A stretch of 30,257 bases of DNA from a virus (IMGVR_UViG_3300023284_002712:1-30257), one strand, 5' to 3'; counted from the stretch's first letter, positions 1 to 30,257 are shown. Program-made: numbers and translations. The notes: generated from the letters alone by a model not told the origin.

Positions 1-144
1 TTGCTGGATTTATGGTAGCAGGTGTTTTGTTTGATGTTATACTGGTTGAAGATATTGAAATTTCCCAAGAAACAGGGGATGATATTTGTAAAAACCTAAC
101 TGGAAATCAATCTGCAGTAGCTTATGAAATTTTTAATGACAATG
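1..144. repeat. Left copy of 144-bp exact terminal direct repeat (circular-assembly overlap or terminal redundancy)
   Basis: Base-for-base identity with 30114-30257, aligned by hand (offset 30113). Confidence 0.9.
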
Positions 145-227
145 GTTATAAGGATGGAAAATTAGGTTGTAAAATTCCAAGTTTTGATTCAACACAAAAT
201 ATAATTATTAAAAAGAACAATGAATAA
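1..227 (+). CDS. 3' portion of the junction-spanning gene (codon phase starts at nt 3; stop TAA 225-227)
   Basis: Same frame as ATG 30074 after subtracting 30113. The internal ATG at 12 is the track start only because the window is cut here. Confidence 0.6.
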   Translation, partial: AGFMVAGVLFDVILVEDIEISQETGDDICKNLTGNQSAVAYEIFNDNGYKDGKLGCKIPSFDSTQNIIIKKNNE

Positions 228-570
228 AAACAGAATACCTTACAAAGAACTTGAAGAAGAGAGAAATATTTTTTTGGGAATAATAATAGTTTTATCTTTA
301 TTATTTTTTTGGGGAATTATTCAAAACAATAATCTTGATCAAGAAAACCAAGTTCTAAGAGAACCTATGAATTTAACAGAGGAAAGAGTTTTTGATTATC
401 ATGATTCAGGAGAAAGTTTTTGTGAAAATTATAATGGAACTTATAGAAATTTCTTACTTGCTAAAGATGATTGTTCCTTTGTAGATAATAATGATGTTTG
501 GTTTTATTGTGATATAATAAAAGTGGAAGATAAATATTACTTCCAACAACATTGTGAGGTAGTCAAATAA
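220..570 (+). CDS. Hypothetical membrane-anchored or secreted Cys-containing protein (116 aa)
   Basis: ATG overlaps the upstream stop (ATGAATAA). One N-terminal hydrophobic helix IFLGIIIVLSLLFFWGII, then a Cys-containing soluble part. Confidence 0.6.
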   Translation: MNKNRIPYKELEEERNIFLGIIIVLSLLFFWGIIQNNNLDQENQVLREPMNLTEERVFDYHDSGESFCENYNGTYRNFLLAKDDCSFVDNNDVWFYCDIIKVEDKYYFQQHCEVVK

Positions 571-575
571 TTAAA

Positions 576-830
576 ATGGAAATTGAATTAGGTGAAAAAG
601 TAAGAGATACAATAACAGGGGTTGAAGGAATAGTTACATCAAGAACTGAATATCTTAATGGGTGTGTTCAATATGAAGTTACAAGAAGAGTAAAAAAAGG
701 AGAAGTTCTAACAGCAGAATCTGTTCAAGGAATTAGTGTTGATGAACAACAATTAGAAATAATAGGGAAAAAGAAATCAATAAAAAAATCAGATAATGGG
801 GGGCCAATGCGAATAAAAACATTTCGTTAA
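576..830 (+). CDS. Small beta-rich protein (SH3/KOW-like pattern) resembling a conserved hypothetical family I recall from phage/prophage genomes; function unknown
   Basis: Motif GEKVRDTITGVEGIVTSRTEYLNGCVQYEV...DEQQLEII. The family resemblance is from memory only. Confidence 0.5.
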   Translation: MEIELGEKVRDTITGVEGIVTSRTEYLNGCVQYEVTRRVKKGEVLTAESVQGISVDEQQLEIIGKKKSIKKSDNGGPMRIKTFR

Positions 831-845
831 AAGATATAAATTAAC

Positions 846-1010
846 ATGGAAAAAAATAAATTAACAATCATTATTGTTTTGAGCTTGGTGTATGTTATTG
901 TTGCAGCACTTTTGATTTCATTAACAACAAATTGGTTATGGGTTTTTCATGCTCCTTTTGTTGCATGGTTAGGATGGAAAATTGGAGAGAGTTCTGAAAA
1001 TGATAACTAA
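846..1010 (+). CDS. Small hydrophobic protein (54 aa), below the ORF-track cutoff
   Basis: Hand translation: MEKNKLTIIIVLSLVYVIVAALLISLTTNWLWVFHAPFVAWLGWKIGESSENDN. It fills the gap between flanking genes and overlaps the int start by 11 nt. Confidence 0.5.
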   Translation: MEKNKLTIIIVLSLVYVIVAALLISLTTNWLWVFHAPFVAWLGWKIGESSENDN

Positions 1011-1590
1011 AGACATAAACCGATTCTTCTTTCCAGATGAATGGAAGAACTTTGTAAAAAGTATTCAAACAAATAAACAGCTTATGCTTTATGAATTAAT
1101 GTTTAATACTGGAGCGAGGTTTGATGAAGCAAGACATACAAGGCCAGTTGATTTTGATTTTGAAAGAAACAATTTAAGAGTTTGGAAAACAAAAACAAAA
1201 GCAAGGAAAGGTGAGAAAGTAGGGAAGCCAAGAACTATAAGTTTATCTTCAAGTTTTTCAAAAAGGATGAGAAGATATTGTGGTAATAAAAAACCTGATG
1301 AATATTTATTTAAGATCTCTCAAGCAGGATTCAATCAATTAATGAAATCTAAAATAAAGAAACTTGGAATAAAAGATTGGACTAACTTTTCCTCACACAA
1401 CATTAGAAAGACGCATGGAATGTATCTAAAGGCCTTAGGGATAGATCTTGCAGAGATATGTACAAGACTTGGACATGATTACAATACTTATATTAAACAT
1501 TATGGAAGTGCAGACCTTTTCTCCGAGAAAGACATGAGAGGAATTAGAGAGTTGTTTGGAGATCTGTATATTCGGAGTAGGAGGTTTTGA
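1000..1590 (+). CDS. int: Tyrosine recombinase / integrase, short form (~196 aa, essentially catalytic domain only)
   Basis: NTGARFDEA (box I Arg), HNIRKTH (H-x-x-R), LGH, C-terminal KHY (catalytic Tyr). The track ORF begins at TTG 982; the first ATG is 1000. Confidence 0.85.
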   Translation: MITKDINRFFFPDEWKNFVKSIQTNKQLMLYELMFNTGARFDEARHTRPVDFDFERNNLRVWKTKTKARKGEKVGKPRTISLSSSFSKRMRRYCGNKKPDEYLFKISQAGFNQLMKSKIKKLGIKDWTNFSSHNIRKTHGMYLKALGIDLAEICTRLGHDYNTYIKHYGSADLFSEKDMRGIRELFGDLYIRSRRF

Positions 1591-1591
1591 G

Positions 1592-1795
1592 ATGAAAAAA
1601 TATTATATTGAAGATGTAGAAGGGAATTTTTGGTGTGAAGACCATTTTGGATATTGGAGTAAGTTTGATGATTCTTTAAAATATAGATTTGAAGGAATTT
1701 ATTTGTGGGTTTTTCCATTATTTTTAATGATGAAATTAGCAAATAGGGAATTGAAACCAAAGATAGTTAAGATTCCACAGGAGATTTTGAAATGA
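1592..1795 (+). CDS. Hypothetical protein (67 aa)
   Basis: First ATG directly after the int stop (TGAGATG). The track start at 1556 is a TTG inside int. Confidence 0.5.
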   Translation: MKKYYIEDVEGNFWCEDHFGYWSKFDDSLKYRFEGIYLWVFPLFLMMKLANRELKPKIVKIPQEILK

Positions 1796-28854: not shown

Positions 28855-29030
28855 GGGTTATGTTGCCCAAATTGGAAGTTGTGGAAACTAGGTGGGAGGT
28901 TAGTGGAAACGGATCAGATTGTGAAAAAAGCAGTCCTAAAACTAATTCTCCTAGTCTAGTGAAAGCTACGGAAGAAATTAAGCGACCTATGACCCCTAGC
29001 ATGTTTTTATTAGGAGAAAACGATGGGTAA
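28839..29030 (+). CDS. Hypothetical protein (63 aa), in a locally GC-richer segment
   Basis: Overlapping starts and stops on both sides fit the operon. A competing antisense ORF exists. Confidence 0.4.
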   Translation: MENSLGVMLPKLEVVETRWEVSGNGSDCEKSSPKTNSPSLVKATEEIKRPMTPSMFLLGENDG

Positions 29031-29250
29031 AGATAAGGAACAGAAATGGGTTGAAATAAGAAATGGGGAAGTTAGAAATGTTTTTAAGAATAGGGAAGAT
29101 GCTGTTAAACATTTTAAGGATCTCCTAAAACAGACTTTAAAAGATTTTAATAAGCAAGATAAACCATGTGAATATGATTACCCTATTAAAATTCCTGAAA
29201 TTGAAATTAAACCTGTGGAGGAAAGAGAATCATATTTAAGTTTATTATAA
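29023..29250 (+). CDS. Hypothetical protein (75 aa)
   Basis: ATG overlaps the upstream 3' end. Confidence 0.5.
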   Translation: MGKDKEQKWVEIRNGEVRNVFKNREDAVKHFKDLLKQTLKDFNKQDKPCEYDYPIKIPEIEIKPVEERESYLSLL

Positions 29251-29274
29251 TAAAATTCGCAAAAGGAGAAAAGA

Positions 29275-29487
29275 ATGGATGAACAAGAAAGAAGAGAAAA
29301 ACAAACTTTATATGAATCGGTAATGTCTGAAGAAGATCTTCAAGGATTTAGAGATAGGGCTAATGCTGAAACAAAAAGACAAGAAGAAAAACCCCATGTG
29401 GAAAGATTACTAGAAAATTACATGACAATTCTTGAAGATGCTTATTATCAAAGAACAACTTCAAGTACGGGGGTAAGAGAAGAATGA
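29275..29487 (+). CDS. Hypothetical charged protein (70 aa)
   Basis: AAAAGGAGAA SD upstream. Confidence 0.5.
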   Translation: MDEQERREKQTLYESVMSEEDLQGFRDRANAETKRQEEKPHVERLLENYMTILEDAYYQRTTSSTGVREE

Positions 29488-29726
29488 AAAAACTTGAAAA
29501 ATTAGCATTAGAAAAATCATCACAAGAACTTGCAGGATTTACTCATGGAATATTATTTGGTTTGCATGGCCTTGCAGTTTATTATAATTTAAGAAGAGGA
29601 CGACCGAAGAGTGCTTTAGTTCATGCAGCAATTGCTTTATACGATGTAGCATCTTTATACAGACATTCTAAGTATCTCTACGACCAAGAAAATCTTGTTG
29701 ATAGATTAAGAGAGGCAGGGATGTGA
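29484..29726 (+). CDS. Hypothetical protein (80 aa) with one hydrophobic segment
   Basis: ATGA overlap. GFTHGILFGLHGLAVYY. Confidence 0.5.
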   Translation: MKKLEKLALEKSSQELAGFTHGILFGLHGLAVYYNLRRGRPKSALVHAAIALYDVASLYRHSKYLYDQENLVDRLREAGM

Positions 29727-29962
29727 AAAGAGAGCCAACAAAACAACAAATAAGACTTTGGAATAAATTAGTTGAAGAAGTATTTGAACATCCCAAATCA
29801 TACTATTCTCTTTTTGTTTATGAAATGATTAAGAGAAGAGTTCTTGGAATTCCTAAAGAAGAGTTTAGGGGTTCTATTAAAGTTCACAAGAAATTAAAAA
29901 TAAATTGTCTTATGTTCAATCCAAAAGAAAAAAGAAGGCCAGTAAAGAGATGGAGAATTTAA
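29723..29962 (+). CDS. Basic hypothetical protein (79 aa), GTG start
   Basis: GTGA overlap with the upstream stop. No ATG nearby. Confidence 0.45.
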   Translation: MKREPTKQQIRLWNKLVEEVFEHPKSYYSLFVYEMIKRRVLGIPKEEFRGSIKVHKKLKINCLMFNPKEKRRPVKRWRI

Positions 29963-30009
29963 TAAAAAGATGGTTTACCTTTTACCATAAAACTAAATAA
30001 AACACATAA

Positions 30010-30018
30010 GTTTATAAA
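30010..30018 (+). promoter_or_regulatory. TATA-like box GTTTATAAA upstream of the junction-spanning gene
   Basis: Same 9-mer as at 20437. The only intergenic gap before ATG 30074. Confidence 0.35.
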
Positions 30019-30073
30019 TAAAGAAAACATAAATAGTTTAGAATTAACATGGAAAAAGGAGTAAAGATTTAAG

Positions 30074-30257
30074 ATGGAACCAGAAATTGTTATGTGGGGA
30101 TTATTTCTTTTTTTTGCTGGATTTATGGTAGCAGGTGTTTTGTTTGATGTTATACTGGTTGAAGATATTGAAATTTCCCAAGAAACAGGGGATGATATTT
30201 GTAAAAACCTAACTGGAAATCAATCTGCAGTAGCTTATGAAATTTTTAATGACAATG
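30074..30257 (+). CDS. 5' portion of junction-spanning small membrane protein gene (full ORF 88 aa, continues at 1-227)
   Basis: ATG 30074 preceded by AAAGGAG. It is in frame with the track ORF 12..227 through the repeat. Hydrophobic N-terminus MEPEIVMWGLFLFFAGFMVAGVLF. Confidence 0.6.
   Translation, partial: MEPEIVMWGLFLFFAGFMVAGVLFDVILVEDIEISQETGDDICKNLTGNQSAVAYEIFNDN
30114..30257. repeat. Right copy of 144-bp exact terminal direct repeat
   Basis: Identical to 1-144. Confidence 0.9.

Follow-up and report, generated by a model that had tools for sequence, protein, structure and literature searches.

The virus record IMGVR_UViG_3300023284_002712 from IMG/VR was analyzed over its entire length of 30,257 nt (the window; all coordinates are counted from its first nucleotide). 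Among its genes are a tandem pair of hydrophobic helix-hairpin proteins, a P-loop ATPase, a giant glycoprotein adhesin, and a series of very basic proteins. An initial annotation, made from the sequence alone, had likened this content to that of archaeal spindle-shaped viruses, and the analysis reported here points to a virus of that type.

Genome closure, hairpin proteins, and the core module

The first 144 bp of the window recur exactly at its far end (1–144 and 30114–30257), which leaves a unique length of 30,113 bp with a GC content of 31%; IMG/VR places the record in its class of direct terminal repeats (DTRs) and rates it as 100% complete. Joining the two ends restores a gene: an open reading frame (ORF) that starts at 30074 on the + strand runs in frame through the junction to position 227, with 88 codons and one membrane helix. 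In two complete relatives, G001 (41,657 bp, DTR of 114 bp) and G002 (45,287 bp, DTR of 53 bp), the contigs are broken at other places relative to the common gene order. Because the break points fall inside a gene and differ between relatives, they are best explained by a genome that is circular or circularly permuted as assembled rather than by fixed physical ends. These data indicate that the window is a complete genome of 30,113 bp, and the repeat, the join-crossing ORF, and the shifted break points all agree with the closed replicon of about 30.1 kb that the initial annotation had described.

The gene list comprises 68 genes, all but five on the + strand, with a coding fraction of 92%. Family scans were run for 40 ORFs against Pfam and for 20 against PHROGs and included nearly all ORFs of at least 120 amino acids (aa); the genes at 2900–3283, 10406–10804, and 18441–18827 fell outside one or both scans, and the other unscanned ORFs are all shorter than 130 aa. 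Pfam, PHROGs, and NCBIfam identified very few of the proteins, and 90% of the genes are without an assigned family. In the scanned ORFs there was no match to a capsid family of the HK97 or jelly-roll kind or to any portal, terminase, or DNA polymerase family, in line with the earlier description of an element with no canonical capsid, portal, or polymerase genes. The same scans found no conjugation genes and no hallmark genes of tailed phages, microviruses, or inoviruses. A preponderance of phage structural proteins among the best matches, which had been named beforehand as grounds for rejecting an archaeal virus, did not appear: no tailed-phage structural family was matched in the ORFs scanned.

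The paired hairpin proteins are the most conserved genes of the group. The first (16403–16702, + strand) is a short major capsid-like protein of 99 aa with an N-terminal KKG motif and a helix hairpin whose turn carries an N-A-S sequon; the second (16722–17252, + strand) is a paralogue of 176 aa in which the same two helices enclose a beta-rich insert, with eight sequons and two conserved Cys residues. The N-terminal helices of the two are 86% identical and the C-terminal parts 66%. In the AlphaFold model of the short form (pLDDT 80.8), helices at residues 17–46, 53–66, and 69–94 fold into a hairpin. The model of the long form (pLDDT 74.5) has a helix at 3–38, strands at 44–127, and a helix at 130–172, and the insert (residues 44–127) is modeled at a pLDDT of about 80–88. 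The tandem two-helix proteins noted earlier at 16403–17252 are thus a paralogous pair, and according to the models they have the architecture of a spindle-virus capsid protein. Members of the pair were found in 85 of 88 related loci. A large protein collection held 532 homologues of the 99-aa protein and 485 of the 176-aa protein, with identities of 66–98% and 51–81%, respectively, among the best 120 listed.

A profile search of 1.84 billion cluster representatives (clusters at 50% identity) retrieved 230 clusters at E ≤ 1e-3. Distant full-length relatives among them measure 84–125 aa and have a basic K-K-G before helix 1 and an N-x-T/S sequon right before helix 2. The position of this sequon is common to the family, SSV1 VP1, and SSV1 VP3; in His1 VP21 the sequon sits earlier in the loop. 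A profile built from distant family members only was then scored against all ORFs of known spindle viruses, with locally shuffled copies that preserve the hydrophobic pattern as the control. The capsid protein was the top-ranked ORF in His1 (VP21), in SSV1 (VP1, with VP3 third), and in two Nipumfusiviridae genomes, and the Nipumfusiviridae scores (8e-5 and 7e-5) exceeded those of the local shuffles (p ≤ 0.005). Neither window protein matched phrog_11172 or phrog_5402, the PHROGs of fusellovirus VP1/VP3, and hhalign found no match between the alignment of the long paralogue and the single sequences of His1 VP21 and SSV1 VP3. Foldseek returned only weak beta-sandwich rows for the long paralogue (E of 0.02 or worse).

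Two further observations concern this protein family. Several members (P0280, P0284, P0297, P0327, P0328, P0335, P0362, P0363, and P0366) are 487–1,095 aa long; in these the profile matches the extreme C terminus, in several cases with a second stretch, and hundreds of residues precede the C-terminal helix. Judged by this layout, they look like capsid proteins that serve as scaffolds for large surface domains. In addition, 73 of 80 short family members weakly match phrog_6586 (129 positions) over both helices, the best at 1.2e-3, and the other spindle or DPANN capsid proteins tested gave no match to this PHROG.

The P-loop ATPase is encoded on the − strand (4924–5913) and belongs with SSV1 B251 and His1 ORF16. 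It matches phrog_5484 at 6.4e-8, and in the same library that PHROG is also matched by SSV1 B251 (5e-101) and His1 ORF16 (3e-62). The ORF as listed extends to 6012, but its likely start is Met34; with this start the gene abuts its upstream neighbor, as in G001, whose orthologue is 60% identical. A Walker A motif (GGTGSGKS) and a Walker B motif (LWDE) are present, and the C-terminal extension gives a weak match to helix-turn-helix (HTH) or sigma-4-like regions, as does that of His1 ORF16. No other viral ATPase family scored for the window protein, and a phmmer search against PDB sequences returned only noise. By the common PHROG, the window is placed with the SSV1/His1-type spindle viruses, a grouping unified by Krupovic et al. 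(2014). The B251/ORF16-type ATPase is the protein common to the known small spindle-shaped viruses and a signature of them. In G002, a 302-aa P-loop ATPase (19846–20754 of that contig, L016; Walker A GGGEVRVGKS) occupies the position of the B251-type ATPase in the module and has no BLAST similarity to the window protein; it may represent a replaced or very fast-evolving core gene.

Protein comparisons of the window with G001, G002, and about 80 metagenome loci showed a core over about 4.0–18.8 kb. This core runs from membrane and winged-helix proteins through the ATPase with a 186-aa protein, a 645-aa protein, seven small genes, the adhesin, two proteins with two transmembrane (TM) helices, and the capsid-like pair to the basic proteins. 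It begins with small membrane proteins and a winged-helix protein (4004–4866, the latter at 4436–4693) that have homologues in both complete relatives. The 186-aa protein (5915–6475, − strand), co-oriented with the ATPase, is 54% identical to its G001 orthologue and has no Pfam, PHROG, or NCBIfam match. The 645-aa protein (6524–8461, + strand; gene GC 38.5%) is a low-complexity protein rich in Gly, Pro, Arg, and Ile that ends in a poly-Lys tail and is predicted to be disordered (Atlas model pLDDT 0.42). It uses a reduced alphabet, with no Tyr, His, Cys, or Trp and a single Asn in the first 590 residues. Its homologues in G001 (999 aa) and G002 (795 aa) have the C-terminal IRPSFTGI motif in common with it, and a search of the Protein Atlas gave no credible relative. 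The conserved morphogenesis block that follows (8932–11814, + strand) encodes a 186-aa soluble protein and proteins of 107 aa, 209 aa (three TM helices), 132 aa, 84 aa (Cys rich), 72 aa (basic), and 172 aa (four TM helices). It is present in G001, G002, and 9–27 metagenome loci, with more distant homologues in a DPANN contig, L120 (2e-31 and 1e-22).

The candidate adhesin (11811–15332, + strand) is a glycoprotein of 1173 aa with a signal peptide, a ConA-like lectin domain (Laminin_G_3 at 7e-17), an immunoglobulin (Ig)-like domain (Big_7 at 6e-5), C-terminal membrane anchors, and 55 N-x-S/T sequons, which bears out the earlier description of a giant adhesin saturated with sequons. Homologues were found 45 times in related loci and also in L120 (4e-53). 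Between it and the capsid-like genes (15314–16270, + strand) lie two conserved 2-TM proteins of 152 and 108 aa, with 45 and 67 homologues in the loci and homologues in L120 at 5e-20 and 3e-10, and a 61-aa protein. Downstream of the pair (17307–18827, + strand), seven small proteins contain 25%–44% Lys plus Arg and, on composition, are putative DNA-condensing proteins; the gene at 18441–18827 is conserved in 39 loci and that at 17829–18101 in 11. They occupy the position of the DNA-binding VP2 in SSV1. The VP1-VP3-VP2 order given for SSV1 in the annotation is correct, and the capsid-like pair followed by basic proteins matches it.

Expression signals and genes outside the core

A 17-mer promoter motif, AAGGTAATGTAATTAAA, occurs in four exact copies, all on the + strand (6485–6501, 11054–11070, 18095–18111, and 18821–18837), compared with 0.1 expected by chance. 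The TATA-like half of each copy is centered 25–27 nt before an ATG (6524, 11094, 18133, and 18859), and the positions of the motif allowed two start codons to be refined. A variant, AAGGTAATGTATTTAAT, lies upstream of ATG at several places in G001 and G002. In total, six operon starts have TATA-like boxes centered 24–27 nt upstream of the ATG, four of them inside the exact 17-mer. As this spacing equals the archaeal distance from TATA box to transcription start, the first genes of these operons would be leaderless, and the promoter geometry fits archaeal leaderless transcription. Of 57 genes, 23 carry a strong Shine-Dalgarno 5-mer between −18 and −3, compared with 5% of random positions. Both expression signals in the annotation have counterparts here: TATA-like boxes, slightly nearer to the ATG than the 30 nt or so given there, and frequent GGAGG-type ribosome-binding sites. 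An exact 21-mer, CTTATAGAATCAAAAGGAGGT, occurs twice (20712–20732 and 27448–27468), in the ribosome-binding regions of the genes that start at 20743 and 27480.

Outside the core, about 15 kb differs between relatives, whose accessory genes include a Prim-Pol/DUF5906 primase-helicase, DNA methylases, an RNA ligase, and a radical-SAM enzyme. The window encodes a tyrosine recombinase (982–1590, + strand) that consists of the catalytic domain only (PF00589 at 7e-14, with phrog_216 and phrog_1 integrase matches); its best NCBIfam model is archaeal XerA (1e-14, far below the cut-off). Homologues number 453 and measure about 196 aa, which makes the ATG at 1000 the probable true start; among the best 120 listed, identity is at least 68%. 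Of the contigs that carry them, those examined (two of the longest and those with capsid matches) are virus-like, with small co-directional genes, and many are 26–31 kb long, close to the window in size; the two longest, of 70 and 48 kb, are likewise virus-like and not host junctions. No recombinase is present in G001 or G002. ARAGORN found no tRNA or tRNA fragment in the window or in 31 loci related to it, and an Rfam search with a limit of E = 1 gave nothing, which leaves no tRNA-type att site of the kind suggested earlier. The gene annotated as a short tyrosine integrase is thus confirmed as a tyrosine recombinase. Its assignment to integration is less secure: integration is possible, and the resolution of multimers appears just as likely. 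The 70-kb contig (L122, Ga0272442_10000405; 70,454 bp, GC 25.6%) carries a 197-aa recombinase that is 72% identical, tiny co-directional genes, and additional genes for a Y1 transposase, an HNH nuclease, a methyltransferase, and sugar-nucleotide enzymes. The recombinase is all that it has in common with the window at a phmmer E of 1e-4, and it may be a different, large element.

Immediately downstream of the core (18859–20428, + strand) are two accessory membrane or secreted proteins. One, of 292 aa (18859–19737), matches phrog_8198 at 5e-14 and occurs in one relative only; the other, of 240 aa, is Cys rich with C-terminal TM helices and is found in 17 relatives at low identity. Next come a 180-aa protein (20743–21285, + strand) that matches phrog_4652 at 5.6e-22 and no Pfam or NCBIfam model, and a ParB-like protein (21270–21971, + strand) with an N-terminal ParB/Srx-type domain (phrog_1033 at 1e-9; TIGR00180 at 6e-5 and PF02195 at 1.7e-3, both below the cut-off). 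No ParA was found in the window. The ParB-like gene is followed by a 0.9-kb non-coding, G+T-rich array (21981–22880, + strand) of about 12 degenerate units of 54–95 bp (repeat families D1–D5). Its GC content is 0.42 and its GC skew +0.54 to +0.61; C is nearly absent from the + strand. Eleven units end in the box AGGAATCATA(A/T)TCAT, and the core of the promoter 17-mer, GGTAATGT, recurs in the units. A coding origin, including a repeat protein on the minus strand, was rejected because the unit spacings are not multiples of 3, and a CRISPR array was rejected because the would-be spacers are related to one another. The array was not found in G001 or G002. In layout it resembles the F-plasmid pair sopB-sopC and the RK2 operators of KorB, and by analogy it looks like a centromere-like partition site of the sopB/sopC type or an iteron origin. 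A hairpin, GAAGGCGGAGTAATCTGCCTTC, lies directly 3′ of the ParB-like gene (21947–21992), and another, GCCCCAATGTTTGTGGGGC, follows the gene that ends at 23351 (23364–23410) and is itself followed by three TTCTAGG repeats; both have a terminator-like or binding-site-like appearance.

The protein encoded at 24277–25617 (+ strand) has 446 aa, Walker A (RGSGKS) and Walker B (CIDEFE) motifs, and a match to phrog_21086 at 3e-6; no Pfam or NCBIfam model matched it, and it may be an unrecognized replication helicase or initiator. The remaining region (25614–30113, + strand) is variable, with about 20 small genes that have almost no homologues in G001 or G002, among them a winged-helix protein (25876–26103, + strand; HTH_24 at 7e-5, above the cut-off). 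Zinc-ribbon proteins with CxxC pairs are encoded at 25614–25829, 26401–27027, and 28144–28359 (+ strand). The annotation had reported a swarm of small membrane and zinc-ribbon proteins. The membrane proteins are indeed numerous throughout the window; the zinc ribbons are thinner on the ground, as only three proteins have at least two CxxC pairs and their Pfam zinc-ribbon matches are weak.

Relatives, host, and interpretation

Megablast of 25 kb of the window against 50,697 deposited phage and archaeal-virus records gave no match, and neither did tblastn of four core proteins (the long capsid paralogue, the ATPase, the 209-aa protein, and the adhesin C terminus) against the same records, which supports the proposal of a poorly sampled lineage. 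Metagenomes at JGI and GenBank contained 180 related contigs, from sites that include Loki's Castle, the Guaymas Basin, and the Sumatra forearc. The window represents a widespread lineage of family level, unrelated to any of the deposited virus records that were searched, and not a new kind of element. Taxonomic labels of contigs from the window's own clade are mixed: two are assigned to Heimdallarchaeaceae, one to "Pacearchaeota," one to "Nanoarchaeota," and one of 1.9 kb to a Bacteroidota bin. The "Pacearchaeota" contig is the whole of G002 (45.3 kb), which belongs to a "Ca. Pacearchaeota" metagenome-assembled genome (MAG), and the "Nanoarchaeota" contig is a fragment in a MAG of that label. 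A scan of 185,579 species genomes for motifs of the clade hit two DPANN MAGs and the 1.9-kb Bacteroidota-binned contig, with no Asgard representative.

The association with DPANN archaea was assessed by scoring the capsid profile against 401 species genomes from the phylum of the Pacearchaeota MAG (Pacearchaeota and Woesearchaeota). Eight genomes matched: six contain verified family members (the centre genome included), one match is too weak to judge, and one, in G187, was discarded as false because it is an ABC-transporter permease. In the control set of 400 Bacteroidota genomes, which are each roughly three times the size, a single weak and unverified match was found, inside an 821-aa ORF. 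In the DPANN contig G347:C10 (23.9 kb), the whole morphogenetic module is in common with the window (phmmer 4e-53, 2e-31, 1e-22, and 5e-20). A second DPANN contig, G304:C5 (112 kb, 30% GC), carries a cellular methionyl-tRNA synthetase (MetRS, 1.5e-148), and at its end (L119, 92363–112362) a tyrosine integrase (17914–18711 of L119) adjoins a capsid-family gene (18776–19057, minus strand). Judged by its gene content, this terminus looks like an integrated relative, a provirus truncated at the contig end. Within 17006–20000 of L119, the integrase and capsid genes come after toxin-antitoxin-like genes and a methyltransferase. The six DPANN members and the provirus, set against the Bacteroidota control, favor DPANN hosts for the family, in keeping with the earlier guess of a DPANN-type host. 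The host of the window itself is probably a low-GC DPANN archaeon of the Pacearchaeota/Woesearchaeota phylum living in anoxic sediment.

On balance, the window is probably the complete genome of an uncultivated spindle-type archaeal virus with a likely DPANN host. A virus, and not a plasmid, is suggested by a core made up of an adhesin, small membrane proteins, and hairpin proteins, in an order conserved in three complete genomes and tens of metagenome contigs. The virion would be spindle shaped, a form deduced here from genes, with a shell built from the two paralogous hairpin proteins, both of which would be glycosylated at the exposed turn, where one would bear a beta-sandwich knob. The lectin/Ig adhesin would be anchored by its C-terminal helices, probably at one pole, and the seven protamine-like proteins and the disordered poly-Lys-tailed protein would probably condense the DNA. 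The B251/ORF16-type ATPase and about ten small membrane proteins may complete the morphogenetic module, and by analogy to known spindle viruses, virions would be released chronically, through budding or extrusion that leaves the cell unlysed. Transcription would rely on the host archaeal machinery, with four operons starting at the 17-mer and having leaderless first genes, and internal genes would be translated from GGAGG-type ribosome-binding sites. As no polymerase is encoded, replication would depend on the host, perhaps with help from the 446-aa P-loop protein; the ParB-like protein and its one-way repeat array could act as a partition site or iteron origin, and the short tyrosine recombinase could integrate the genome or resolve multimers.

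Several observations weigh against this interpretation, some of them concerning the host and others the form of the virion. MAG binning of low-GC viral contigs is weak host evidence, and no host junction or att site was seen for the window's own clade. The two contigs of that clade labeled as a Candidatus Heimdallarchaeaceae MAG measure 39.8 and 10.9 kb, and the clade is abundant in sediments of Loki's Castle (LAZR01) and the Sumatra forearc (Ga0209976 and Ga0114923), the source of Asgard viruses (bioRxiv 10.1101/2021.07.29.453957). Spindle-shaped viruses of Asgard archaea do exist: wyrdviruses are known, and NMV3 has been seen on cells (bioRxiv 10.64898/2026.08.12.739948). It is thus possible, if somewhat unlikely, that a virus of the same type infects Heimdallarchaeia or Lokiarchaeia, that the DPANN labels are a low-GC binning artefact, and that the DPANN provirus belongs to a sister lineage with a different host. 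This explanation is a real rival. The DPANN provirus and the module-sharing G347:C10 lie on more distant branches (about 1e-9 by phmmer to the window capsid protein) than the window's own clade. Set against it, the sole host-junction evidence is in a DPANN chromosome contig, verified members occur in six DPANN species genomes and in none of the 400 Bacteroidota controls, the large genome scan returned two DPANN MAGs, the Bacteroidota-binned contig, and nothing from Asgard archaea, and the best 80 of the 180 metagenome matches include none of the named wyrdvirus contigs, although other contigs from the same metagenome are present.

The form of the virion is affected by the capsid comparisons. 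VP21 and VP1, to which the annotation had suggested a profile comparison, rank first within their own genomes, but the scores of the His1 and SSV1 capsid proteins were no better than those of local shuffles (p about 0.08–0.1); in Halorubrum virus BLv25, the annotated capsid protein ranked only second. For the short model, Foldseek and VIA-align returned only generic helical hairpins (Z ≤ 6.8). The hairpin models and shuffle results together point to a spindle-capsid architecture with sequence kinship that extends to Nipumfusiviridae, whereas similarity to the classical members is not significant. Pleolipoviruses follow a general plan of an anchored, glycosylated spike, small membrane proteins, and one P-loop NTPase. 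The window has a large glycosylated protein anchored at its C terminus, small multi-pass membrane proteins, and one such NTPase, and these genes would equally suit a pleomorphic, vesicle-like virion. With structure searches uninformative and the His1 and SSV1 comparisons as they are, a pleolipovirus-like vesicle or another membrane form, with the two-helix proteins in the envelope and the 1173-aa protein as its spike, deserves mention, but we judge it unlikely. The ATPase belongs to the B251/ORF16 spindle family and to no other that scored, the hairpin proteins resemble Nipumfusiviridae capsid proteins beyond the shuffle control, tandem hairpins with a sequon at the turn ahead of basic proteins mirror VP1-VP3-VP2 of SSV1, and genomes of 30–45 kb with DNA-condensing proteins exceed the typical, smaller size of pleolipovirus genomes. 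Still less probable is a non-viral mobile element, a plasmid or vesicle-transferred DNA that uses its membrane proteins and adhesin for transfer from cell to cell. The ParB-like gene with its adjacent array, the recombinase, the lack of a recognizable capsid fold, and the 90% of genes without a family all suit such an element; yet it is the adhesin, hairpin proteins, and ATPase that are conserved, while replication and partition genes vary among relatives, the ParB-linked array and recombinase are missing from both complete relatives, the ATPase family is a spindle-virus signature, and no conjugation genes turned up in the scans. A bacteriophage of, for example, a low-GC bacterium, with structural genes that escaped recognition, is scarcely credible. 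GGAGG-type ribosome-binding sites, the 1.9-kb fragment in a Bacteroidota MAG, and matches to phrog_4652, phrog_8198, and ParB-like models from a phage-dominated library would be in its favor, but hallmark genes of tailed phages, microviruses, and inoviruses were not matched in the scans, the promoters fit archaeal TATA boxes with leaderless starts, the ATPase family came only from archaeal spindle viruses among the records tested, 400 Bacteroidota genomes gave one weak match, and an integrated relative lies in a DPANN chromosome contig.

A broader proposal can be made tentatively, as something that could be true in full but may well not be. The window would belong to a family-level lineage of spindle viruses that infect DPANN archaea worldwide and have traits not described for spindle viruses. 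Its turn inserts, which range from an 80-aa beta-sandwich to several hundred residues, with fused forms of up to 1,095 aa, would make the hairpin protein a scaffold for surface display; seven protamine-like proteins and a disordered protein of reduced alphabet would package 30–45 kb of DNA; and one ParB/KorB-like regulator would bind GGTAATGT both at four operon promoters and in the 0.9-kb centromere-like array.

Viruses of DPANN archaea are barely known, although in sediments and groundwater these minute symbionts account for a large part of the diversity of archaea. To our knowledge, spindle-type viruses have been seen only in archaea, and the present lineage, with more than 500 capsid-protein variants and a wide distribution, would add a further deep branch of the archaea to their range. 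As a closed reference with a core module that is defined, the genome provides a handle for finding such viruses, with the capsid pair and the recombinase as highly conserved markers, and can be used for host assignment via CRISPR spacers or Hi-C data. It also lets the scaling of hairpin capsid proteins to genomes of 30–45 kb be tested. The decorated capsid paralogue, the protamine-like battery, the reduced-alphabet protein, and the promoter motif common to the ParB-linked array are its unusual traits.

Comparison with known spindle-shaped viruses

The small spindle-shaped viruses recognized by the ICTV (the international virus taxonomy committee) comprise the families Fuselloviridae, Halspiviridae, Thaspiviridae, Nipumfusiviridae, Huangdiviridae, and Eurekaviridae (PMC12451623); the wyrdviruses and NMV3 of Asgard archaea have been described and are unclassified (bioRxiv 10.1101/2021.07.29.453957; 10.64898/2026.08.12.739948). 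Like the window, the wyrdviruses and NMV3 come from marine sediments and have a single or paired hairpin capsid protein, an adhesin, a block of conserved genes without assigned function, an ATPase without a membrane helix, and variable replication modules. Unlike it, they are reportedly small (WyrdV1, 15.6 kb; NMV3, 14.1 kb), and genes for a polymerase or for rolling-circle replication occur in several. Their capsid proteins measure about 80 aa. The best 80 metagenome matches of the window's capsid family gave no sign that the window is a wyrdvirus.

His1 (Halspiviridae) and the window both encode an ATPase with a C-terminal HTH region (ORF16 in His1) and many small CxxC and membrane proteins, and VP21 is the top match of the window-family profile among His1 ORFs. 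The two differ in that His1 has a linear genome of 14.5 kb with inverted terminal repeats and a protein-primed polymerase, whereas the terminal repeats of the window are direct and no polymerase family was matched in the scans.

The likeness to SSV1 (Fuselloviridae) extends to a circular double-stranded DNA genome, a pair of hairpin capsid proteins ahead of a basic DNA-binding protein, an ATPase of the B251 type and the same PHROG, a tyrosine recombinase, and a large glycoprotein that is terminal. The K-G before helix 1 in the window proteins also resembles a processing site, which we take to be comparable to the cleavage site of SSV1. In contrast to SSV1, the window genome is about twice as large, has no BLAST-level similarity, and encodes capsid-like proteins whose homology to those of SSV1 is not significant. 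Its recombinase is a 196-aa catalytic domain nearest to XerA, compared with the 335-aa SSV type whose gene splits on integration, and there are seven basic proteins compared with one VP2. The host of SSV1 is a hyperthermophilic crenarchaeon, and that of the window would not be. The gene set that characterizes Fuselloviridae (the VP1/VP3 PHROGs, VP2, and the SSV-type integrase) is not shared by the window, given that its capsid-like proteins match neither PHROG, that megablast and tblastn matched no record, and that its recombinase has the catalytic domain only.

Nipumfusiviridae, the Nitrosopumilaceae spindle-shaped viruses represented by NYM1 and its relatives (PMC10866085; PMC12451623), also consist of complete metagenomic genomes (27–38 kb) that lack a polymerase and have the ATPase as a core gene. 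Their hairpin capsid protein (89 aa) has sequons at the turn and is encoded beside a giant protein, as in the window. They originate from the water column and soil and are assigned to ammonia-oxidizing archaea, and their GC content is 37%, compared with 31% for the window. BLASTP of all window ORFs against the Nipumfusiviridae genome IMGVR_UViG_3300001450_000008 gave two short, weak matches only and no common proteins, with the capsid proteins related at profile level only, and the window therefore falls outside the 30% average amino-acid identity and shared protein set by which ICTV defines that family.

A 2024 metagenomic survey by Wu, Liu, and Ni (Nat Microbiol 9:3362; cited in PMC13573593) reportedly includes spindle-shaped viruses among seven new families of DPANN viruses, the host superphylum also favored here, so the lineage of the window may already have a name there. 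The HK97-fold capsid, portal, and large terminase of Caudoviricetes were not matched in the ORFs scanned. With an ATPase of the same PHROG, the hairpin architecture, the matching gene order, and no tailed-phage hallmark, the window is closer to fuselloviruses and His1 than to tailed phages, as the initial annotation had proposed.

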